The notes under the pieces were generated by a model. The model made no database searches. It was not told where the DNA came from and saw only the letters and a program-made list of their open reading frames with translations. Positions 28,603-50,025 of a stretch of DNA of 64,000 bases are shown in pieces. The DNA lies in IMG/VR virus record IMGVR_UViG_3300027782_000030, positions 1-64,000 of that record, one strand, 5' to 3'. Position numbers and translations under genes: made by a program. Source of the DNA: a virus (taxonomy: Duplodnaviria; Caudoviricetes). The stretch's first letter is position 1, and the number at the start of each line of letters is the position of its first letter.

Positions 28603-29229
28603 ATGTTTACAATTAAAAGTATTTTTGATAATGATTATTATCTAACGCATAAATCTCAATTATTGAATTATTTTTATAATGTTTATCAGGAAAAGACCTA
28701 TCCTAGCCATATTAATATGTGGGATGAAAATTGGGAAAAAAAAAATTTCACTTTGCCTTACTTAATTTACAAAAGTGAAAGGTTTATAAATGGACATGGT
28801 GACATGCATATTATACTCGATGAGCAAGAAAATATTATTGCCAATGCAGGAGTCAACATATCTGATTTCGATCCTTATGTAGCTTTAGCCGGTGTTAGAT
28901 CTTGGGTAAATAAAAAGTATAGAACACAACTTTTAATAGCCAAATATATTTTACCTAAGCAATTGAGTTGGGCGAAAGAAAAAAATTTAAAAAGCATTGC
29001 CATATCGTTTAATGACTATAATAAAAATTTAGTAAAGTATATAACAAGATCAGGACTAGGTATTAAGAAAAGAAGAGGGCCACATAGTATGTTTTATAAT
29101 GGACATCATGAAGTTGAATTCCCAGTAACTATTAACTATGCTAAACAATGGGTTGTATATCATAAAATAGACGAGGATTATATCCCAAATTGGGAATCAA
29201 TAAAATATATAGAAAATGAAAATGAATAA
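28603..29229 (+). CDS. Hypothetical protein, GNAT-like
   Basis: IIANAGV...GVRSWVNKKYR pattern. Confidence 0.5.
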   Translation: MFTIKSIFDNDYYLTHKSQLLNYFYNVYQEKTYPSHINMWDENWEKKNFTLPYLIYKSERFINGHGDMHIILDEQENIIANAGVNISDFDPYVALAGVRSWVNKKYRTQLLIAKYILPKQLSWAKEKNLKSIAISFNDYNKNLVKYITRSGLGIKKRRGPHSMFYNGHHEVEFPVTINYAKQWVVYHKIDEDYIPNWESIKYIENENE

Positions 29230-29989
29230 ACTTATCTCTAATAATACACTAGTAACCCAACTTTTTTTAATTATAGCAATTATAGGAGGGATCTTTGGAA
29301 TCTATGTTTATGAAATTACCATAAACAACTTAATTTTAATTATCGTTGGGTATTTTTTATACAGTTGCTTAGGCATTGTAGTAACATTTCATAGGCAATT
29401 GACTCACCAAAGTTATAATACGTATCCTATACTAAATAACTTCTTTAGTTTTTTAGGTTGTATGGCTAATACTGGAAGCTCAATATCGTGGGTTGCCACA
29501 CATATCAAACACCATTTGCATTCTGATAGACCGGGCGATCCACATAGTCCATGGATTTCAAAATGGAGAATATTCCTTCTTGATTACCCCAGTGACAGTG
29601 AAATCAAATGGAGAATGCGTAATCTTATTAGGAATCCCTTTCATTTATTTTTACATAGATATTACAATCTTTTAATTATCTCGTATAGTTTGGTATTGTT
29701 TGTAGTAGGAGGCTGGGAATTAATGATATTTTTACATTGGATCCCAAGTATAATAGTAGCATTAATGAGCAATATTGTGAACTATGCAGGACATAAAGAT
29801 AATTGGTACGGGTCATATAGAAACTTTAATCTAAATGATCATAGTGCTAATAGTTGGATATTTGCTATACCGAGTTGGGGAGAAACTTGGCATAATAATC
29901 ATCATAGATATCCAAAGAAATATACCACTAGATATCGTTGGTATGAATTAGATATATCTGGTTTAATTATACAACTTATTAAAAAATGA
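29216..29989 (+). CDS. Delta-9-type fatty acid desaturase
   Basis: His boxes HRQLTH, HIKHH, HNNHH; transmembrane helices. Confidence 0.9.
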   Translation: MKMNKLISNNTLVTQLFLIIAIIGGIFGIYVYEITINNLILIIVGYFLYSCLGIVVTFHRQLTHQSYNTYPILNNFFSFLGCMANTGSSISWVATHIKHHLHSDRPGDPHSPWISKWRIFLLDYPSDSEIKWRMRNLIRNPFHLFLHRYYNLLIISYSLVLFVVGGWELMIFLHWIPSIIVALMSNIVNYAGHKDNWYGSYRNFNLNDHSANSWIFAIPSWGETWHNNHHRYPKKYTTRYRWYELDISGLIIQLIKK

Positions 29990-37245: not shown

Positions 37246-37827
37246 TTAAAATGAGTGAGTGTACGCTACGTTATAGCTGTGATTGAAACTGTCACCACGA
37301 ACTAGGTCATAACGAAGACCAACACTATCATGCTTAGTGATAGCATAACTAACACCTGCACGAGCAGTATGAGTTGTGTCAAGATTGCCGTTCGTGCCAA
37401 AACCATTGCGGAAACGATAACCAACTTTAGCGGTTAGCTTGTCAAACATGGTGTATGTAACACCTGGCTCAACACTATAGTAACCAAAATTAGCGCCATT
37501 AGTAAACTTCTCACCTGTAGCAACACGGGTGTAAACACCAACTGGGCCAACTGGCATAGAGCCAGTAACACCAATTTCAATACGGTCGCTAAGTGCTTTA
37601 GTACCAGCCTGTTGATAGGCAGTAAAGCCAATATCACCAGCAAACATTTTGCCAAATGATTCTTTAACGCTGAGTTGATAGTTGCTGCTGTCGCGGGCAC
37701 CACGATCACCCTTTTGGATTTGATCTTCAAGAGTAATGCTGGCTGCATTGGCTAGACCAGTAACAGCCATTAGTGCTGCGATTGCGAAAACTTTCTTCAT
37801 ATAGATATCTCCTTTAAAAAGTTTCAT
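37246..37827 (-). CDS. Outer-membrane beta-barrel protein
   Basis: Signal peptide, amphipathic strands, C-terminal Y.H.F BAM signal. Confidence 0.75.
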   Translation of the reverse strand: MKLFKGDIYMKKVFAIAALMAVTGLANAASITLEDQIQKGDRGARDSSNYQLSVKESFGKMFAGDIGFTAYQQAGTKALSDRIEIGVTGSMPVGPVGVYTRVATGEKFTNGANFGYYSVEPGVTYTMFDKLTAKVGYRFRNGFGTNGNLDTTHTARAGVSYAITKHDSVGLRYDLVRGDSFNHSYNVAYTHSF

Positions 37828-37907: not shown

Positions 37908-38534
37908 ATGAGTGAGATTGTAATACCTTCAATTCGTGAAACATTGCGTATACAACGTTGGGACGATCATAGATACTATCATCATAGCAGAATTAATCAA
38001 TTCTTACATTTGATTTCGGCTACCAGTTTCTTGGTAGCATATGTATATTTGTTCATTAATCCTGTTATCAGTTCTTACATCGCTTGGTTCATTGCTATGA
38101 CAACACGCCAAATTGGGCATTTCTTTTTTGAACCCGATGGTTACGATGAATATAATAAGGCCACTTTTGAATACAAAGAAAAAATCAAAGTAGGTTTCAA
38201 TCTCAAACGTAAACGAGTGTTACTAGCATGTTGGGCAGCAGTACCTATACTAGCTTACTTTGATGCCGAACTTTTTAACTTTATCATGCCCGATGCTAGC
38301 CCAGATACACTGTTTAATCGTATTGGGTGGGGTTGGTTATGGTTGGGTGTAGCAGGTGTAGTATTTAGAATGATTCAACTTACCGCAATCGATAGTCGCC
38401 GAACTGCTATTACTTGGTGTATTAAGATCATAACAGATCCATTCCATGACGTAATTATCTATCGTAACAGTTGGTTATATTTGTTGCGGGGCCAACTCAT
38501 TGACCCCGACTTAAGACAAGACTACGAAGATTAA
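37908..38534 (+). CDS. Mpo1/DUF962-like membrane protein
   Basis: HRYYH..RINQFLH...IGHFFFE; transmembrane helices. Confidence 0.65.
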   Translation: MSEIVIPSIRETLRIQRWDDHRYYHHSRINQFLHLISATSFLVAYVYLFINPVISSYIAWFIAMTTRQIGHFFFEPDGYDEYNKATFEYKEKIKVGFNLKRKRVLLACWAAVPILAYFDAELFNFIMPDASPDTLFNRIGWGWLWLGVAGVVFRMIQLTAIDSRRTAITWCIKIITDPFHDVIIYRNSWLYLLRGQLIDPDLRQDYED

Positions 38535-42548: not shown

Positions 42549-44013
42549 CTTCTTTTACCTCTATTGCTACTGGCATTTTTTCAGGATTAGCCTCCCATGC
42601 TGCTCTTGCTGCTTCACCTATCTTACCTTCATACGGGCAAGGTGTGCCTGCGCTCCACATAGCATCAAACACACGGCGATCCTGACACATTGTGGCAACT
42701 GCTGCTACCTTCATACCCATATCGTAAAGTGTTTTGGCTAACTTTAGTCTTTCGCAATTAACATCTCTAATAGTAGAACCACTACTAACACCAAAGATTT
42801 GTGTTTGAACAGCACCACTTACACCAGTGGTACATAGGTCAGCATTACCACCACTCATCATTGTGGGGGCAATGGCTGTGGGAGGAGGTTGAATGACTCG
42901 TTGTGTAATTTCTGATGAGTTAATATTGCGGTTAGTCATGTCACCAGTTTGTACGTTTTGATTGACATTGTTGCTATTATTAACATTATTGCTAGTACTT
43001 GCACTTACACTAGTGTTGACATTATTGTTATTGTTAGTCATTGTACCAGTGTTAATGTTATTATTGGTATTGACATTACTATTTGTGCTGGTACTAGTAT
43101 TAATATTTCTATTGGTCATACTGCCACTAGTAATATTATTATTGGTGTTGACATTTGTGCTTGTGCTTGTGCTGGCATTGTTATTATTGTAAGTCATTGT
43201 GCCAGTGTTCACATTAATGTTTTTATTAGTACTTGTGCTAGTATTGACATTATTATTGTTATTAGTCATTGTACCATAGTTGAAATTGGTACTGGTATTA
43301 ATGTTTTTATTTGTGCTTGTACTGGTATTGATATTTTTATTAACGTTGTTGCTAGTACTGACATTATTATTATTGTATGTCATTGTACCAGTATTGACAT
43401 TGATGTTTTTATTGGTATTAGTGCTGGTACTTGTGCTGGTATTGTTATTATTATATGTCATCGTACCTGAATTAATATTATTATTGGTATTAACACTAGT
43501 ACTAGTACTAGTACTAGTACTAACATTGTTGTTATTATTAGTCATTGTACCACTATTGACATTATTGTTGTTGTATGTCATTGTACCACTATTAACATTG
43601 TTATTAGTATTAACACTGGTACTGACATTGTTATTATTGTTAGTCATTGTACCGGTGTTTACATTGTTATTGTTGTAGGTTACTGTTCCACTATTAACAT
43701 TATTATTGTTATTATTGTAGGTAACCGTACCACTGTTGACATTGTTATTGGTTACAGTGCCACTTTGAATATTATTATTTGTATTGACACTGGTATTGAG
43801 ATTAGTACTATTACTGTTTACTGTACTAGCACTGGTGCTGGTACTATTACTGGTGCTGGTATTATTGGTATTAACCGTACTGGTGCTATTACTTGTACTA
43901 TTGGTGTCTACTAATGTCTTAGAATCGTATCCACCTTGATTAATTAAGGTTTGAGCATTAACCGTAATTGCAGACAACAATATACTGGTATATACCAATA
44001 TTTTTTTAAGCAT
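42475..44013 (-). CDS. Secreted Asn/Thr-rich repeat protein with a Cys-containing C-terminal domain
   Basis: Signal peptide; many N(V/I)N(S/T)GT(M/V)T(Y/N)NNNN repeats; C-terminal hydrophobic tail. Confidence 0.75.
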   Translation of the reverse strand: MLKKILVYTSILLSAITVNAQTLINQGGYDSKTLVDTNSTSNSTSTVNTNNTSTSNSTSTSASTVNSNSTNLNTSVNTNNNIQSGTVTNNNVNSGTVTYNNNNNNVNSGTVTYNNNNVNTGTMTNNNNNVSTSVNTNNNVNSGTMTYNNNNVNSGTMTNNNNNVSTSTSTSTSVNTNNNINSGTMTYNNNNTSTSTSTNTNKNINVNTGTMTYNNNNVSTSNNVNKNINTSTSTNKNINTSTNFNYGTMTNNNNNVNTSTSTNKNINVNTGTMTYNNNNASTSTSTNVNTNNNITSGSMTNRNINTSTSTNSNVNTNNNINTGTMTNNNNNVNTSVSASTSNNVNNSNNVNQNVQTGDMTNRNINSSEITQRVIQPPPTAIAPTMMSGGNADLCTTGVSGAVQTQIFGVSSGSTIRDVNCERLKLAKTLYDMGMKVAAVATMCQDRRVFDAMWSAGTPCPYEGKIGEAARAAWEANPEKMPVAIEVKEDDSLKKIGLGSLLGMVAFKLFGFH

Positions 44014-44064
44014 AAACTTTTCCCCTATTGTTAGAGAAGTTACTTAATATTTACTCTATTATCA

Positions 44065-45072
44065 TTAACATTTATCTACTAAGTTATCTCTGAAGATGCG
44101 CCAACATTCTTCCCAACTCCAACGTAGGCTAGCTTCTTCTACACGAATACGATCCAATCTTAAACATTGATCTATGGCTGTTTTTAAATCTTCATCCATA
44201 TAGCCTGTAACACCTTGATCTATAACATCTTTAGGTCCAACAACTGGATATGCTGCTACTGGTGTACCACAGGCCATTGCTTCAATCATTACTATACCAA
44301 ATGTATCCCAACGACTGGGGAATACAAATACATCAGCATCGGCATAATATTTGGCTAGTTCTGCCCCACGCTTCACCCCAACGAATTCAACATCAGGGTA
44401 TTCACGCTCCATACGGCGCCGGCATGGGCCATCACCTACTACTATTTTGGTAGCACCGGGATATGCTAACCTACAAAACTCATCTAAATTCTTTTCTTTA
44501 CTAACACGCCCTACGCTTAACAATATGGGTTGTGACTGTTCTGTAGCTGTTCTAGTGCTACTACCAAATATGCTACGATCAACCCCGCGAGTCCAAGGTT
44601 TAATATCAGTTCTAAATCCACGATTGGCTAGATCATCCACCATGCTTTGTGTAGTAGTTAGTACACGACCGCTGTGTTTATGAAACCAGCGTAAATAGCG
44701 ATAACTCCAACTTGTTGGTATGCCCGCAATCTTTTCTAGTGCTTCGGGGAAACGAGTGTGATAACTGGTATTGTAACACCAACCCCAATAGTCCATCCAA
44801 CAACGAGCAGCGAAGCCTACTGGCCCTTCTGTAGCAATGTGTATGTAGTCAGGATTTACTTTTTCAATAATCCTGCCAATCCCCCAAGTCCAACTAAGTT
44901 TGATCTCATTATAACCAGGGCAGGGAATATTATGGAACTGCCTGGGGTCAAGATAAACAAAATCATACCCATCACGCTCAGCCAAAACTTCCAAGTTATG
45001 AAATGTTGTAACAACGCCATTGATTTGTGCAGGTTCATTGTCGGTTATGATTAATACTGTTTTCATTTTCAC
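44065..45072 (-). CDS. agt: GT4 glycosyltransferase, Agt-like (diacylglycerol glycosyltransferase)
   Basis: NGVV.T, HIATEGPVG, TSYHTRFPE, FPSRWDTFGIVMIEAMACGTPV; coupled downstream of plcP-like gene. Confidence 0.75.
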   Translation of the reverse strand: MKMKTVLIITDNEPAQINGVVTTFHNLEVLAERDGYDFVYLDPRQFHNIPCPGYNEIKLSWTWGIGRIIEKVNPDYIHIATEGPVGFAARCWMDYWGWCYNTSYHTRFPEALEKIAGIPTSWSYRYLRWFHKHSGRVLTTTQSMVDDLANRGFRTDIKPWTRGVDRSIFGSSTRTATEQSQPILLSVGRVSKEKNLDEFCRLAYPGATKIVVGDGPCRRRMEREYPDVEFVGVKRGAELAKYYADADVFVFPSRWDTFGIVMIEAMACGTPVAAYPVVGPKDVIDQGVTGYMDEDLKTAIDQCLRLDRIRVEEASLRWSWEECWRIFRDNLVDKC

Positions 45073-45835
45073 GCACCTCTGACCAAGTTATAATTTCCCA
45101 ACGACCATCCCAATGTTCAACTAGTGCGGTACAACTTTCACACCAGTCACCATCGTTCATGTAGATTACGCCGTTGATTTCTTTGATTTCAGCCTTATGT
45201 ATATGCCCACAGATCACACCATCGTAGCCCTTCTTTTTGCAATAACCGGCTAGATTTTGTTCAAATTGAAACATAAAGTCTACCGCTTTTTTGACCCGGT
45301 GCTTAAGGTACAAGCTAAGGCTCCAGTAGCCAAAACCCAAACGATGACGAATCCAATTGAGTTTAGTATTGATATTGAGTACGCAGTCATATGCTTTGTC
45401 TCCTAATATGCTGAGCCAAGGGGCCAGCCTAGTAATACCATCAAATAAATCACCATGAACTACAAGATACCTTTTTCCATCTATACCGGTGTGAATAGCC
45501 TGATTACAGATTTTAATACGACCAAAACTAACACCATATGGTATAAGTGGGCGTAAAAATTCATCATGATTGCCTGCTACATAAACTACCTGTGTTCCGT
45601 GTTTAGCATGTCCTAATACACGGCGAATGACATTGGTATGGCTTTGATGCCACTTTAATGTGTTTTGTTTCATTTTCCACGCATCTATTATGTCACCCAC
45701 TAGATACAGTGTTTCACATGTATTATGTTTAAGAAAGTTGTTTAGATAGTCTGCTTTACAGGCTTTGGTACCGAGATGTACATCACTGATAGAGATTGTA
45801 CGATAAGTTTTTTGCGCCATACTACTATTTAACAA
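45035..45835 (-). CDS. plcP: PlcP-like phospholipase C (LpxH-like metallophosphoesterase)
   Basis: SDVHLG, LVGDIID.W, GNHDEFLR, HGDLFD, YWSLS..LK..VKKAV, CGHIH, GDWCESCTALVE. Confidence 0.8.
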   Translation of the reverse strand: MLNSSMAQKTYRTISISDVHLGTKACKADYLNNFLKHNTCETLYLVGDIIDAWKMKQNTLKWHQSHTNVIRRVLGHAKHGTQVVYVAGNHDEFLRPLIPYGVSFGRIKICNQAIHTGIDGKRYLVVHGDLFDGITRLAPWLSILGDKAYDCVLNINTKLNWIRHRLGFGYWSLSLYLKHRVKKAVDFMFQFEQNLAGYCKKKGYDGVICGHIHKAEIKEINGVIYMNDGDWCESCTALVEHWDGRWEIITWSEVRENENSINHNRQ

Positions 45836-45860
45836 TAGTTATATTACAAACCTATTACAT
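45826..45860 (-). promoter_or_regulatory. Pho-box-like repeat plus TTAAATA
   Basis: ATGTAAT-AGGT-TTGTAAT-N10-TTAAATA. Confidence 0.7.
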
Positions 45861-45887
45861 ATAAAAGCAACAACATAAAGAAATTAA

Positions 45888-46499
45888 TTATGTATGGTAA
45901 GTTACTATTATTTCTTCTTTTTCAAAACTCGGGAATATGAATTCATTATTATGATGCATTCTTTTATTCTTTTCTAAATTTTCAAATCCAATTCCTAACA
46001 TTACTAATGGATTATCTTCTAAATTTAATATTTCTTTTATTACTTGATTATTAAAACAAGAACAAAATCCGGTGTAATACCCTAGAATATGGGATATCAT
46101 ATTTATATATCCAAGAGCGATTCCTATTGAAATATAAGCATCTCTTACATAAGAACTATCGGTAGATTCTCTAATCTGATCAGGATATCTTTTTTTATTA
46201 ATTATTGAATCGCTTGGCGATTTACGTTCAAACACTAATAATAGATTAGCTAAAACTTGAGGATTTGTATAAATGTGACCAAACCCTAAAGTGTTTTCAT
46301 GTATTTTTTCAATAATTTCCCTGTTCGTAATAGCATGAATTTTATAATGTGCAATATTTTGTTTACTTGGACATTGGGTAGCAGCCGTTATAATTACATC
46401 TAAATCTTCTTTTGAAATTTCTTTAGATAGATTCCAATTCCTCTGACAATGCTGGCTTCGATTAATAATATTCTTAAGTTCAGGTTGATCTAATATCAT
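45888..46499 (-). CDS. Nitroreductase-family protein
   Basis: RSQHCQRNW, ATQCPSKQN, GYYTGFC motifs. Confidence 0.75.
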   Translation of the reverse strand: MILDQPELKNIINRSQHCQRNWNLSKEISKEDLDVIITAATQCPSKQNIAHYKIHAITNREIIEKIHENTLGFGHIYTNPQVLANLLLVFERKSPSDSIINKKRYPDQIRESTDSSYVRDAYISIGIALGYINMISHILGYYTGFCSCFNNQVIKEILNLEDNPLVMLGIGFENLEKNKRMHHNNEFIFPSFEKEEIIVTYHT

Positions 46500-46538
46500 T
46501 TACTCATTCTCTTAATCCTAAGTATTTATTCTAACCAT

Positions 46539-46562
46539 AAAAAAAGAGCCTCACGGCCCTTT
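46539..46562 (-). terminator. Intrinsic terminator
   Basis: AAAGGGCC-GTGA-GGCTCTTTTTTT. Confidence 0.8.
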
Positions 46563-46645
46563 AGTGCTGGTTACGAGCTTCCAGCGATCCCTCTATCATG
46601 GGTCCGTTTTAAACAACCTTTTAATCCATATTCTTAATCTAAGTA

Positions 46646-47287
46646 TTACTTTCCCAATAAACTGTCGACCTTTGCTTCAACTGCATCTAACCGATGTTCA
46701 ATTTCATCTAGTGCAGGATCTGCTGGAGCGGAAACTGCTTCAAATATTTGTTGATGGACTTCAGAATTAACTGCTTCTCCTGTTGCTGTTGAAACAATAT
46801 GAGCTACCGCAGCGGCAATTTCTTCTGTACCTGCAGTTGGTGCAGGCATTTCAGCAACTGCTGCTGTAATAGCGGCTGTAATTGCTTCAGGGTCTGTGAC
46901 AACTTCAGGCTCTGCTGTAACAACTGCTAGTACCGCTGCTTTTACAATATCAGCAACTTCAGGGTTAACAATTGCATCTGCTTCGTGTTGAGCAGCTACT
47001 ACATCGCCAACAATGCCTGCGGCTTCTGCATGGTCAGCACTTGGTGAAAGTGCTAGTACATCTTCAACAGAAACTGGTGCTTCATCAGCTACGGAATAAA
47101 CAATGGCGTCAATATGGCTCTCAGTTTTTTCAGCGATCAAATGATCAACTTGAACTTCAACAACTGACAATCTGGTGTCTAGTTCTTCAATGCTTGTGGC
47201 ATAATCTGTGTTAACTTCTGTGCCAGTTAGTGTTGCTAACTTAGCTTCTACTGCTACTAATCTTGCGGCTAAATCTTGTAATCTCAT
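46646..47287 (-). CDS. Acidic Ala/Glu-rich protein with RL.(A/V)VE coiled-coil motifs
   Basis: AAGGAG RBS before MRLQDL; three related heptad motifs. Confidence 0.7.
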   Translation of the reverse strand: MRLQDLAARLVAVEAKLATLTGTEVNTDYATSIEELDTRLSVVEVQVDHLIAEKTESHIDAIVYSVADEAPVSVEDVLALSPSADHAEAAGIVGDVVAAQHEADAIVNPEVADIVKAAVLAVVTAEPEVVTDPEAITAAITAAVAEMPAPTAGTEEIAAAVAHIVSTATGEAVNSEVHQQIFEAVSAPADPALDEIEHRLDAVEAKVDSLLGK

Positions 47288-47333
47288 GGGTTGCTCCTTT
47301 AGGTTAGGTGAGTGAATCATGTCCACTCACCCT

Positions 47334-47368
47334 TATTTAACTGCTACTATATTAAAGTAATATTACAA
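47334..47368 (-). promoter_or_regulatory. Pho-box-like repeat plus TTAAATA
   Basis: TTGTAAT-ATTA-CTTTAAT-N10-TTAAATA. Confidence 0.6.
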
Positions 47369-47372
47369 AATA

Positions 47373-48947
47373 TCAGAAACTCAATAATAGTAGCTGTCCA
47401 CCTTCAACCAGTTCAGCAGCATTAGTACCAGTGGCTAGTTTATGATTTTGATCAACCAACAAGAAGTAACGCTTGCCATCTGTACGACCTAAGATACTAG
47501 TGATTTCAATGATACCGCTGGTTTCTTCGTCATTGGTCTCAGTTCCAACAACACCTGTGTAATAATCACCAAACAGCTTCTCATCATGTTGAGCAAGTAG
47601 TGTCAATGCCTTAGTAACAGGATTGTATTTCCAAATCTTACCATTGTGATTGTTACCACCAACATCCTCTTGTAGAATGATTGTGCCATCGCTAGCAACA
47701 GTCATGTTGTCAAACATCTGTGTTCCATGAATACGGCCGGCAACTGTAACAGTTTCAGTACCATCGAGCACCATTTCAAGGATGCCACCCGATTCAGGAC
47801 GGGTTAAATCAGTAAATGTCATGCTCCAAAGGCGTGTGCGACCAACTTGAGCAGTATTAGTAATACTGGTATTGATCTTGCCCCCGGTGTTGTCTTTAGC
47901 AGCATCTACTGTGTTGGTTGTTACAAAGTAGTAGCGGTTCTTGTTAACTGTATCCCAAGCACCATCTTCTGGACGCAAGAAACTTGTACCAGCAACACCA
48001 GTTACTGGGACATTAGGAACAAAACTAAATGTAGCAGTCTTATTGACCAGTCCTAGTCCAGCATCAACAGCGGTAGTTTCATTAGCAGCAACACCGCCAA
48101 CATTGACCACAGCACGATATAGCGTACCATTAGTTAGACCTGCTTTATCAACTTCAGTAGCACCAGTCTTGTTTTTAGTGCCAACATACATATAAACACC
48201 ATTGCTGCCACTGTCGCTATTGGCCATAACAATGGTCTTGTCACCGCTGTTGGGATGTGCGATTAGATTTTCCCAGCCTACACCAAATGTGGTAAATCCA
48301 CCAAAGTGTGGGAGAATGTATGCTTTGCCTTTGTCTGCTCCGCTGGCCACGATAGCAAGACCGCGTCCCATTGTAACAGTACCGTTAGCGGTTTCTTCAC
48401 CAGTCATAAACATTTTAACCGAAGAACCATTGCCTGTTGCTGAGTTGAAGAAAGCGCCGGCTGCTGGTAGATCGGCTGAACAGAAACGCTGAAATGCTAC
48501 AGCAGTTTGCTCGGCCCAAGCACCATTGACCTGTGCATAAACTTTTTTCATTAGGTCACTACCGCTCTTGACCTGTAGAGTAGTTTTATCAATAACCCAC
48601 TCACTAACAAAAGCACCAATACCACCATGAGCACGGGCAATACCAACAGTGTTGGCCAGTTCATGAGCCATTAGCACGGTGAATGTGTTGTCACCATTAT
48701 CATAAGCACCCAGTCCATCTGGAATACCCACCATGCGATAAGTGCCAACAGCGTCACCAACGGTTAAGATACTGGCAACTTTAACGCTGCTGTCAATTGG
48801 AACAATGTAGGGATCTACTGAACTGCTAACTGCTTTGCCTGATGTAAAACCAGTAACTTCTTTAGGTGCTGCTACAGTGGTGTCATCGCTACCACATGCT
48901 GTTAATAGAGCCGTTGCTACGGCTACTGCTAGAACGGTATATTTCAT
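47373..48947 (-). CDS. phoX: PhoX/DUF839-family alkaline phosphatase lipoprotein
   Basis: Lipobox LTAC; RFCS, GEE, RPEDG, DNMTV...QED motifs; directly after pstS. Confidence 0.72.
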   Translation of the reverse strand: MKYTVLAVAVATALLTACGSDDTTVAAPKEVTGFTSGKAVSSSVDPYIVPIDSSVKVASILTVGDAVGTYRMVGIPDGLGAYDNGDNTFTVLMAHELANTVGIARAHGGIGAFVSEWVIDKTTLQVKSGSDLMKKVYAQVNGAWAEQTAVAFQRFCSADLPAAGAFFNSATGNGSSVKMFMTGEETANGTVTMGRGLAIVASGADKGKAYILPHFGGFTTFGVGWENLIAHPNSGDKTIVMANSDSGSNGVYMYVGTKNKTGATEVDKAGLTNGTLYRAVVNVGGVAANETTAVDAGLGLVNKTATFSFVPNVPVTGVAGTSFLRPEDGAWDTVNKNRYYFVTTNTVDAAKDNTGGKINTSITNTAQVGRTRLWSMTFTDLTRPESGGILEMVLDGTETVTVAGRIHGTQMFDNMTVASDGTIILQEDVGGNNHNGKIWKYNPVTKALTLLAQHDEKLFGDYYTGVVGTETNDEETSGIIEITSILGRTDGKRYFLLVDQNHKLATGTNAAELVEGGQLLLLSF

Positions 48948-48972
48948 TTTAAAACTCCTTTTGTATGTTTGT

Positions 48973-49953
48973 TTATTTGACTAACTTTGCCCAATCGGCA
49001 CGAACTTGATCCTTAACCTTTTGGGGTAATGGAACATAATCTAGGTCTGTAGCGTCCTTGTCACCCTTTGTATAGACCCAATCAAAAAATTTGGTAACTT
49101 GTTTTGTTCGCTCTCCAGTAGGATATATGAGAATAAATGTAGCGGCAGTAATAGGCCATCCATCTAAATCATTGAGATTAACTGCCATGTTGGGCACTGA
49201 CCAGTCAGCAGTCTTGGCACTTTCAGCAAATGTTAAGTCATCTGGTTGAACTACAGCACCTTTGCGGTTCTTCATGGCCACATGAGTTAGTTTGCTCTGT
49301 TTAGCAAATGCGTACTCAACATAACCAATTGATCCTGCTAGTTGTTGAACGTTAGCAGCAACACCAGCATTACCTTTACCTGCTGAAAGACTTGTTGGCT
49401 TCCAAGTAACAGTTTTACCTGTACCAGTACCTGTTTTGAACTCAGGACTTACTTTACTCAAGTAATCAGTAAACACAGCAGTTGTACCTGATCCATCAGC
49501 ACGAACCACTACATTGATAGCAGCATCAGGAAGTGCTAGACCTGGGTTAAGTTTAACAATAGCAGCATCGTTCCACTTGCTGATTTTACCTTGATAAATG
49601 TCAGCTAGTGTCTTGCCATCAAGAATCATTTTACCTGGCTCAATACCTTTGATATTGATTACAGCAACAACTCCACCGATAACTGATGGGAATTGATATA
49701 GTCCAACTTCTTTTAATTTAGTATCTGGTGTAGGATCATCACTAGCACCAAAGTCTACGGTTTTAGCAATGATTTGAGCGACACCGCCACCACTTCCGAT
49801 TGGATTGTAGTTAACAGTAGTACCAGTTTCTTTGTTGTAGGCTGCTGCCCATTTTGAATAAATAGGAGCCGGGAAAGTTGCCCCGGCTCCAGTAATCTGT
49901 GCTTGTGCAGCAAATGCGGCTGCGGCTAATAGAATTCCAACAATTTTTTTCAT
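48973..49953 (-). CDS. pstS: Phosphate ABC transporter substrate-binding protein
   Basis: GAGATFPAPIY.KW, GSGGG, DFGASD, RADGSGTT, IGYVEY. Confidence 0.96.
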   Translation of the reverse strand: MKKIVGILLAAAAFAAQAQITGAGATFPAPIYSKWAAAYNKETGTTVNYNPIGSGGGVAQIIAKTVDFGASDDPTPDTKLKEVGLYQFPSVIGGVVAVINIKGIEPGKMILDGKTLADIYQGKISKWNDAAIVKLNPGLALPDAAINVVVRADGSGTTAVFTDYLSKVSPEFKTGTGTGKTVTWKPTSLSAGKGNAGVAANVQQLAGSIGYVEYAFAKQSKLTHVAMKNRKGAVVQPDDLTFAESAKTADWSVPNMAVNLNDLDGWPITAATFILIYPTGERTKQVTKFFDWVYTKGDKDATDLDYVPLPQKVKDQVRADWAKLVK

Positions 49954-49990
49954 CTAATTTCCTTTATAGTATTGTGCATTTGCACAATAC

Positions 49991-50025
49991 TATTTAAACA
50001 TATTAATGTTACAGGAATATTACAA
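49991..50025 (-). promoter_or_regulatory. Pho-box-like repeat plus TTAAATA
   Basis: TTGTAAT-ATTC-CTGTAAC-N10-TTAAATA, followed by a 13-bp hairpin (49966-49993). Confidence 0.75.

Follow-up and report, generated by a model that had tools for sequence, protein, structure and literature searches.

A metallophosphoesterase gene overlaps a glycosyltransferase gene in a phage genome fragment

The DNA analyzed here (the window) covers positions 1–64,000 of the 200,570-bp IMG/VR record IMGVR_UViG_3300027782_000030, for which CheckV gives a completeness of 58%. In this window, a gene for a metallophosphoesterase overlaps a gene for a glycosyltransferase, and an original prediction made from the letters and open reading frames (ORFs) had named the pair as PlcP and Agt, the enzymes of a bacterial lipid-renovation pathway. 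The two genes are as follows.

45035–45820, minus strand: plcP, a PlcP-type Mn-metallophosphoesterase of 261 aa (predicted phospholipase C), assigned by similarity, motifs, tree and predicted fold
44065–45066, minus strand: agt, an Agt/GTcp-type glycosyltransferase of family GT4 with 333 aa (predicted diacylglycerol glycosyltransferase), assigned by similarity and published motifs

The plcP ORF spans 45035–45835, and translation likely begins at the ATG at 45820 (MAQKTYRT...), in agreement with the homologues. The agt ORF spans 44065–45072, with a likely start at the ATG at 45066, which is preceded by GAGG as the ribosome-binding site, so that 32 nt are common to the two genes. Pfam matched Metallophos/Metallophos_2 on the first protein and Glyco_transf_4 together with Glycos_transf_1, i.e., GT4, on the second, so the overlapping metallophosphoesterase and GT4 pair was found as predicted. 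The surroundings named in the same prediction were also recovered: a Pho-box-like direct repeat before the pair (45859–45842, minus strand), nrdA and nrdB in the window close to it, and the phoX and pstS ORFs at a distance of 1.5–4 kb.

The metallophosphoesterase is of the PlcP type rather than LpxH

Bacterial PlcP-Agt systems, which served as the reference, include PA3219/PA3218 of Pseudomonas aeruginosa, PB7211_983/PB7211_960 (GTcp) of SAR11 HTCC7211, MED193_17359 of Phaeobacter MED193, PlcP of Sinorhizobium meliloti, Agt atu2297 of Agrobacterium tumefaciens and the proteins of Methylosinus OB3b. For PA3219 (PlcP) and PA3218 (Agt1), the pathway has lipidomic, proteomic and genetic evidence, and Agt1 makes monoglucosyldiacylglycerol (MGDG) in Escherichia coli (PMC8528852). 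As a named anchor, we used a P. aeruginosa record from PLSDB in which a 270-aa "UDP-2,3-diacylglucosamine diphosphatase" (UDP, uridine diphosphate) has a 4-nt overlap with a 351-aa glycosyltransferase, the next gene being an adenylate cyclase; the record was taken as the PA3219/PA3218 locus from this gene order and not from locus tags.

The phage PlcP was 53% identical to the P. aeruginosa PlcP over 250 aa (E 3e-95), and the phage Agt was 44% identical to Agt1 over 329 aa (E 2e-93). These identities equal or exceed those among validated members (46–51% and 41–43%, respectively): between PA3219 and the PlcP proteins of MED193 and S. meliloti, identity is 47% and 46%, respectively, between PA3218 and the Agt of MED193 it is 41% (PMC8528852), and the OB3b proteins are 51% and 43% identical to those of HTCC7211 (PMC9239053). 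A published survey of PlcP used BLASTP E < 1e-40 against MED193 PlcP (PMC4796936); with this threshold applied here against the validated P. aeruginosa member instead, the phage protein lies well inside it.

The phage PlcP contains the complete calcineurin-type metal-binding motif set with GNHD (N84-H85-D86), and the seven metal-ligand positions (D13, H15, D43, N84, H122, H206 and H208) do not vary among the 37 phage and bacterial PlcP-like sequences compared; the residue-level assignments come from this motif conservation alone. The contrast drawn in the original prediction between GNHD in the phage enzyme and GNRD in LpxH also holds, since GNHD occupies residues 83–86 and the aligned LpxH proteins in the PDB have GNRD there. 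A PlcP-like gene was present in 124 of the 401 sampled Proteobacteria at 37–58% identity (the best match being 58%), and the phage PlcP proteins form their own clade. In 9 of the 12 best bacterial PlcP loci, an Agt-like gene (40–47% identical) lies directly downstream on the same strand, and this plcP-then-agt order corresponds to "type 2" in the scheme of Sebastian et al. (PMC4796936). The operon trait of PlcP is likewise present in the phage, in the form of the 32-nt overlap with an Agt-type glycosyltransferase and a Pho-box-like repeat 21 nt upstream, for which PhoB binding is predicted only. A scan of genome contigs by exact peptide words returned only SAR86 loci, at 45% identity.

The other assignment to be weighed is that the pair acts on lipid A or lipopolysaccharide (LPS), as an LpxH-type UDP-diacylglucosamine hydrolase with an LPS glycosyltransferase. 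LpxH is the name given by the JGI to the homologues, by the annotations of the phages Mosig and S-SRM01 to theirs, and by labels in virome surveys, and LpxH proteins are the only solved relatives of the phage enzyme (E about 4e-4 by sequence). They are also its best fold match: the AlphaFold model (predicted local distance difference test score, pLDDT, 81.6) returned LpxH for all of its top 25 PDB matches, at E of about 1e-10, and places a helical insertion at residues 123–197, the position of the LpxH lipid-binding lid. Against this assignment, both curated LpxH models scored far below their cut-offs (NF003743, 43.5 vs. 134; TIGR01854, 33.3 vs. 190), GNHD stands in place of GNRD, and the pair is 53% and 44% identical to the validated PlcP-Agt1 pair. 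The PlcP/LpxH phylogeny proposed with the original prediction was also run, and it placed the phage protein outside the LpxH clade. In this maximum-likelihood tree, 13 LpxH sequences lay across a branch of 6.47 substitutions per site (support 100/100; one LpxH row, L123, is a bad ORF call and can be ignored), and the phage PlcP grouped with the phage loci L009, L010, L102 and L011 (support 100/95). Moreover, the two types are paralogues within single genomes: several genomes with a PlcP-like gene (G069, G001, G009 and others) carry a bona fide LpxH above cut-off elsewhere, which is at most 27% identical to the phage PlcP. We therefore regard action on lipid A or LPS as very improbable.

The glycosyltransferase belongs to the Agt/GTcp clade

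Members of the Agt/GTcp clade are 46–58% identical to GTcp and less than 25% identical to other GT4 enzymes (PMC8231724). In addition to its clade-level identity to the validated Agt1 (44%), the phage Agt was 40–48% identical to the Agt-like genes that adjoin bacterial plcP. The published features of GTcp are a His-Asp dyad, GRVAXEKN, FPSXTDTFG, Gly-rich motifs and a Glu after DTFG (PMC8231724). The phage protein has H103 and D254, GRVSKEKN (186–193), FPSRWDTFG (249–257), G17 and EGPVG (80–84), and E262; these were compared with the text of that paper and not with the GTcp sequence, and they are offset by 1–3 residues from the GTcp numbering, with one position differing (W for T). The identification of the pair as PlcP- and Agt-type orthologues, and not as LpxH with a generic glycosyltransferase, is well supported by the identities to the validated pair, the motifs and the low LpxH scores, and the original prediction was correct in this respect.

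The carrier is a giant T4-like freshwater phage

A T4-type major capsid protein gp23 (PF07068, 326 bits) and a T4-type portal (PF07230, 344 bits) are encoded at 67–73 kb of the record, and 21 tRNA genes lie in the window; the record is therefore from a giant phage. The nrdA and nrdB genes are encoded near plcP-agt. The capsid protein is 66–73% identical to capsids of jumbo phages with genomes of 287–469 kb, namely Sinorhizobium phage Phosso (469 kb), Vibrio phage 2.275.O (349 kb), Pseudomonas phage PA5oct (287 kb) and two Erwinia phages (355 kb). Nearly identical DNA is present in freshwater metagenomes from about 20 studies. A megablast search of window positions 43000–50000 against deposited phages gave no match, and an Rfam scan of the window matched only tRNAs, with none at 45700–47500.

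We considered whether the stretch could instead be cellular DNA, either a bacterial fragment or a mis-binned contig. Some IMG/VR contigs with a solo plcP group tightly with SAR86 bacterial genes, but they have nothing else in common with this phage. Here, the contig that carries the cassette also encodes the capsid and portal, 20 kb away, the region holds the 21 tRNA genes, nrdAB and many ORFs without a family match, and the gene order is common to relatives that carry phage genes, e.g., GP38. A cellular origin is thus hardly credible. Three contigs filed as viral in IMG/VR (L071, L077 and L053), in which plcP is nested with SAR86 bacterial sequences and the fetched flanks share almost nothing with phage genomes, may themselves be cellular.

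Other membrane-related genes were observed in the same phage.

29216–29989, plus strand: fatty-acid desaturase (PF00487, 67 bits)
37246–37827, minus strand: porin-like protein (PF13609, 31 bits)
37908–38534, plus strand: weak Mpo1-like match (E 1.4e-4, which does not reach the cut-off); P. aeruginosa also has an Mpo1-like gene near its plcP

Distribution and selection of the pair

Only five deposited phage records have a PlcP-like gene, including Pelagibacter phage Mosig (48.6%) and Synechococcus phage S-SRM01 (35.5%), both annotated as LpxH, and no Agt-like protein with more than 32% identity to the phage Agt was found among deposited phages. In IMG/VR, at least 85 contigs carry a PlcP-like gene, and 80 of these loci were fetched. 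A GT4 Agt adjoins plcP in 8 of the 80; in 33 (L016–L082), a 235-aa GT2/GT21-like gene abuts plcP upstream. The neighbours of the IMG/VR plcP loci include a T4-type clamp loader, DNA polymerase B, a UvsX-like RecA and gp15.

The closest PlcP relatives are 73–94% identical and some lie on contigs of 300–570 kb, with the pair kept on contigs of up to 513 and 570 kb; the two large-contig contexts that were inspected consist of phage-like DNA with many genes common to this record. The ratio of nonsynonymous to synonymous substitution rates (dN/dS) was 0.05–0.11 for plcP and, against close relatives, 0.05–0.09 for agt. Both genes are under strong purifying selection in a lineage of 300–570-kb lake phages.

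Several variations on the arrangement were observed. A conserved 61-aa ORF with a hydrophobic N-terminus and the motif ...NPxDIPGRVxLxF...KFDxFxxEGRC (L102:7840-8025, plus strand; also in L011, L012, L086 and L105) bridges the two genes in most relatives, overlapping plcP at its end and agt at its start; the window and L009 lack it, and plcP and agt overlap directly there. The SAR86 loci L004–L008 have a GT2 gene that is 62–68% identical to, and arranged in the same way as, that of the phage GT2-plcP loci, and in L078 a UDP-glucose dehydrogenase gene lies just upstream of GT2-plcP. Two members of the same giant-phage lineage (L081 and L062, 267 and 43 kb; structural genes 62–84% identical) have a plcP of the other type (48% identical, with a GT2 gene upstream) in place of plcP-agt, which suggests that related phages acquired or replaced the lipid module independently.

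Literature searches combining PlcP with phage or viral terms and lipid remodelling with auxiliary metabolic gene terms, and covering the pelagimyophage papers, returned no description of a phage-encoded PlcP or Agt. No paper describing the pair in a phage was found, in agreement with what the original prediction had supposed. Two virome studies, one of surface oligotrophic seawater and one of Lake Baikal viral metatranscriptomes, list lpxH (K03269) among viral LPS biosynthesis genes, and these may be of the PlcP type.

Neighbouring phosphate genes and elements

The following features lie upstream of the pair.

48973–49953, minus strand: pstS, periplasmic phosphate-binding protein (NF008171, TIGR00975, Pfam PBP_like_2)
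47373–48947, minus strand: divergent PhoX-fold lipoprotein of 524 aa, which follows pstS after 25 nt and has a ribosome-binding site of its own
46646–47326, minus strand: acidic Ala/Val/Glu-rich protein, with its own Pho-box-like site and 5' hairpin
46538–46632, minus strand: two-hairpin element, then an intrinsic terminator (46562–46543), conserved in relatives
45888–46499, minus strand: nitroreductase-family gene (PF00881), with its own ATAAATA motif

The pstS ORF is certainly a true PstS, with 403.5 bits against a cut-off of 339 for NF008171 and 340 against 205 for TIGR00975. The neighbour named phoX in the original prediction is PhoX-like by its homologues, language-model features and fold, although it has no family match of its own: the ORF gave no Pfam (even at E 10), NCBIfam or PHROG match, and neither phmmer nor a 21-sequence profile found anything in the PDB. 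Among its 21 homologues (39–54% identity), 12 matched PF05787 (PhoX), with a best E of 2.6e-12, and the language-model (Atlas) features scored 0.96 to PhoX clusters. The AlphaFold2 model (pLDDT 85.8) had as its top two PDB matches the Pseudomonas fluorescens PhoX structures 3zwu and 4a9v (E 3e-14, template-modelling score 0.51–0.56), and the next fold, a beta-propeller, was seven orders worse (E 6.5e-07). We call this ORF PhoX-like on this indirect evidence from its homologues, language-model features and predicted fold. Its N-terminus carries a lipoprotein signal peptide with the lipobox LLTAC. Among the homologues (P0256–P0282), up to four copies of the PhoX-like domain occur within giant proteins of 1000–4358 aa. 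Single-domain homologues carry PEP-CTERM tags (6 of 21) or a Por secretion tail (1 of 21), so the family is mostly cell-surface or exported.

The acidic ORF has no family match, and translation probably begins at the Met near 47287, a position preceded by AAAGGAG in the relative L009. Homologues of it (51–74% identity) adjoin plcP in five other viral loci. The two-hairpin element, about 60 nt long with the loops GATAGAG and CGTAAC, is located after the acidic ORF and before the plcP promoter region and recurs at L009:1322-1416, L010:1876-1970 and L086:7906-7990, directly before plcP in the last; most copies are followed by a terminator. It had no Rfam match. Its consensus fold is weakly supported, with one compensatory pair among four sequences, and a manual reading of the L086 stems suggests compensatory changes. 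The nitroreductase gene is probably a single-gene insertion, since L009 and L010 lack it at this position and the terminator there runs straight into the plcP Pho box.

A Pho-box-like composite site precedes three transcription units

A composite of TGTAAYA, 4 nt, TGTAAYA, 10 nt and TAAATA was found upstream of pstS, the acidic ORF and plcP.

49991–50024, minus strand: repeat (50024–50007) and TAAATA (49996–49991) upstream of pstS, kept in L102 and L086
47334–47367, minus strand: repeat (47367–47350) and TAAATA upstream of the acidic ORF, kept in L009
45826–45859, minus strand: repeat (45859–45842) and TAAATA (45831–45826) upstream of plcP, kept in L009, L010, L011 and L102

Allowing up to one mismatch, we counted 4 copies of the repeat in the window, compared with an expectation of 0.5 and with fewer than 4 in each of 100 shuffles. 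If TAAATA at +10 is also required, the 200-kb record contains exactly three copies, one before each of the three genes named. The usual PhoB-dependent promoter has a pair of 7-bp direct repeats spaced at 11 bp, some 10 nt ahead of the -10 element. The window copies read (C/T)TGTAA(T/C), and their layout agrees with CTGTCATNNNNCTGTCAT, the PhoB consensus quoted for the P. aeruginosa plcP operon (PMC8528852). The pstS site of L102 has the canonical CTGTCAT as its first half-site. In the 513-kb relative L105, TGTCACAGAATTGTCATA stands ahead of plcP at -51 rather than -40, about 11 nt further upstream than the site of L009, L010 and L102. TGTCA and TGTAA half-sites thus interchange at the same place among relatives.

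As the three units share this PhoB-type direct-repeat site at a fixed distance from TAAATA, pstS with the PhoX-like gene, the acidic ORF, and plcP-agt are probably switched on together when the PhoR/PhoB system of the infected host senses phosphate shortage. At plcP, the repeat lies 21 nt from the start codon and TAAATA ends 5 nt before the ATG, which may leave the plcP message almost without a leader.

A possible role in mobilizing host membrane phosphorus

We think it rather probable that the pair represents a viral copy of the PlcP-Agt pathway for lipid renovation known from bacteria, lying within a phage-borne phosphate-starvation gene cluster and mining the phosphorus of the host membrane. 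The PlcP and Agt activities, the PhoB control and the benefit to the phage are inferred from sequence, and phosphate-starvation-triggered mining is the most economical reading of the role. PlcP, a cytoplasm-facing, Mn-dependent enzyme with a helical lid for lipid binding, would remove the phospho-head group from host glycerophospholipids and leave diacylglycerol. Agt, encoded in the overlapping reading frame, would then glycosylate this diacylglycerol with glucose or glucuronic acid taken from a UDP-sugar, and the resulting phosphorus-free glycolipid would keep the membrane intact. The freed head groups would remain in the cytoplasm, where host phosphatases could release phosphate for nucleotide synthesis.

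The original prediction had proposed a relay in which PhoX finishes the release of head-group phosphate and PstS recaptures it. This is unlikely. LpxH is a cytoplasm-facing peripheral enzyme, and since it is the closest fold to PlcP, whose sequence has no signal peptide or other export signal, the head-group products should arise inside the cell. Consequently, the exported PhoX-like lipoprotein and the periplasmic PstS cannot be the next steps. It is more likely that the two form a separate module that scavenges external phosphate under the same switch as plcP-agt.

Several points weigh against the mining hypothesis. The P. aeruginosa anchor, besides being assigned from gene order, is filed as a plasmid. 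RNA-library assemblies match plcP by one 142-nt piece (X24, 45283–45424) and agt by none; pstS, the PhoX-like gene and the acidic ORF are represented by fragments in three lake metatranscriptome assemblies (those of the acidic ORF at 94–100% identity, in one assembly), and these are assembled contigs that possibly include DNA, so they say little about plcP-agt expression either way. The half-sites in the window read TGTAA and not the canonical TGTCA, differing at the fifth base, and ATAAATA lies within 60 nt upstream of 27 of the 140 long ORFs, an enrichment of about 16-fold. TAAATA is therefore probably also the core of the likely late-promoter motif of the phage, and control could be phage-specific instead of by PhoB, or the site could be composite. 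If the repeat bound a phage factor or marked a subclass of late promoters, the genes would follow a fixed schedule whatever the phosphate level, and the presence of TAAATA exactly 10 nt after every copy agrees with this. However, two 7-bp repeats at 11-bp periodicity, about 10 nt before a -10-like element, are the layout of a PhoB promoter, canonical CTGTCAT or TGTCA half-sites occupy the same place in relatives, and the composite is found before phosphate-related genes only. We consider a purely phage-specific site unlikely, at perhaps one chance among several.

The enzymes could also be of the PlcP and Agt types while the benefit lies in envelope remodelling, i.e., in blocking superinfection, altering receptor display or keeping the envelope of a starving cell stable until lysis, and not in phosphorus supply. 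Lipid renovation reportedly changes how bacteria interact with phages and grazers (PMC9938194, PMC9804370 and PMC9457565), and phage glycosyltransferases have been read as surface modifiers in the pelagimyophage literature (PMC7029224). Nevertheless, the module adjoins pstS and the PhoX-like gene and has a control site in common with them, which ties it to phosphate, and its products would be inner-membrane glycolipids rather than surface glycans. The two benefits are not mutually exclusive, but envelope remodelling in place of phosphorus supply seems to us somewhat less likely still than phage-specific timing.

Significance

The phosphate-related genes known from phages serve uptake (pstS) or external esters (phoA), or have no known role (phoH). 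If our reading is true, a phage-borne membrane-lipid pathway adds an internal phosphorus reservoir to what viruses tap. By a rough estimate, one genome copy at an estimated 350 kb needs about 7e5 phosphorus atoms. An E. coli-sized cell contains roughly 2e7 phospholipids, and small lake bacteria contain several-fold fewer, so membrane phosphorus could, as a rough estimate, cover a large share of a small burst. A more far-reaching proposal, to which we give somewhat less than an even chance, is that a widespread clade of 300–570-kb freshwater phages carries a mini Pho regulon under host PhoB control, in which plcP-agt would convert phospholipids to glycolipids and free enough phosphorus for very large genomes, so that viruses would supply phosphorus-free glycolipids directly to phosphate-poor waters. 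An annotation habit is corrected as well: PlcP-type genes in deposited phage genomes, and perhaps in the two virome studies, are labelled lpxH and counted under LPS synthesis, which obscures a possible connection of viral infection and phosphate limitation with aquatic glycolipid pools.

Comparison with known systems

The phage locus resembles the bacterial PlcP-Agt operon in having plcP followed by agt, overlapping or abutting, with a Pho-box-type site upstream and with matching metal ligands and Agt motifs. It differs in lying on a giant T4-like phage, clustered with a phage pstS and a PhoX-like gene, in half-sites that read TGTAA, in a plcP almost without a 5' leader and in proteins that form their own clade. 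LpxH, which acts as a UDP-2,3-diacylglucosamine pyrophosphatase in lipid A synthesis, shares the metallophosphoesterase fold with the phage PlcP, including the position at which a helical lipid-binding lid is inserted, but it is only about 20% identical, has GNRD where the phage enzyme has GNHD, falls in a separate clade and co-occurs as a paralogue of PlcP-like genes in the same bacteria.

Among viral genes, Mosig_00120 of the isolated T4-like Pelagibacter phage Mosig EXVC030M ("putative UDP-2,3-diacylglucosamine hydrolase") is also PlcP-like (48.6%) and is transcribed in the opposite direction to a phosphate ABC-transporter gene (pstS), from which it diverges; unlike the pair described here, it has no adjacent glycosyltransferase, is annotated as LpxH and is not discussed in the pelagimyophage paper (PMC7029224). 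In the GT2-plcP arrangement of SAR86 and of the 33 IMG/VR loci, plcP is likewise tightly paired with a glycosyltransferase, and many carriers are T4-like phage contigs; however, the partner is a 235-aa GT2/GT21-like protein encoded upstream and not a GT4 Agt encoded downstream, and its PlcP is about 50% identical to that of the window and belongs to another branch.

The last comparison is with the cyanophages. Zeng and Chisholm (2012) reportedly described cyanophage pstS and phoA under the control of host PhoR/PhoB, with Pho-regulon genes behind Pho-box-like sites. The present phage is similar in placing Pho-regulon genes behind such sites, presumably so that the host starvation signal switches them on. 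The cyanophage system contains uptake and phosphatase genes only, whereas here a membrane-lipid pathway appears to have been added, in a freshwater jumbo phage of more than 300 kb.

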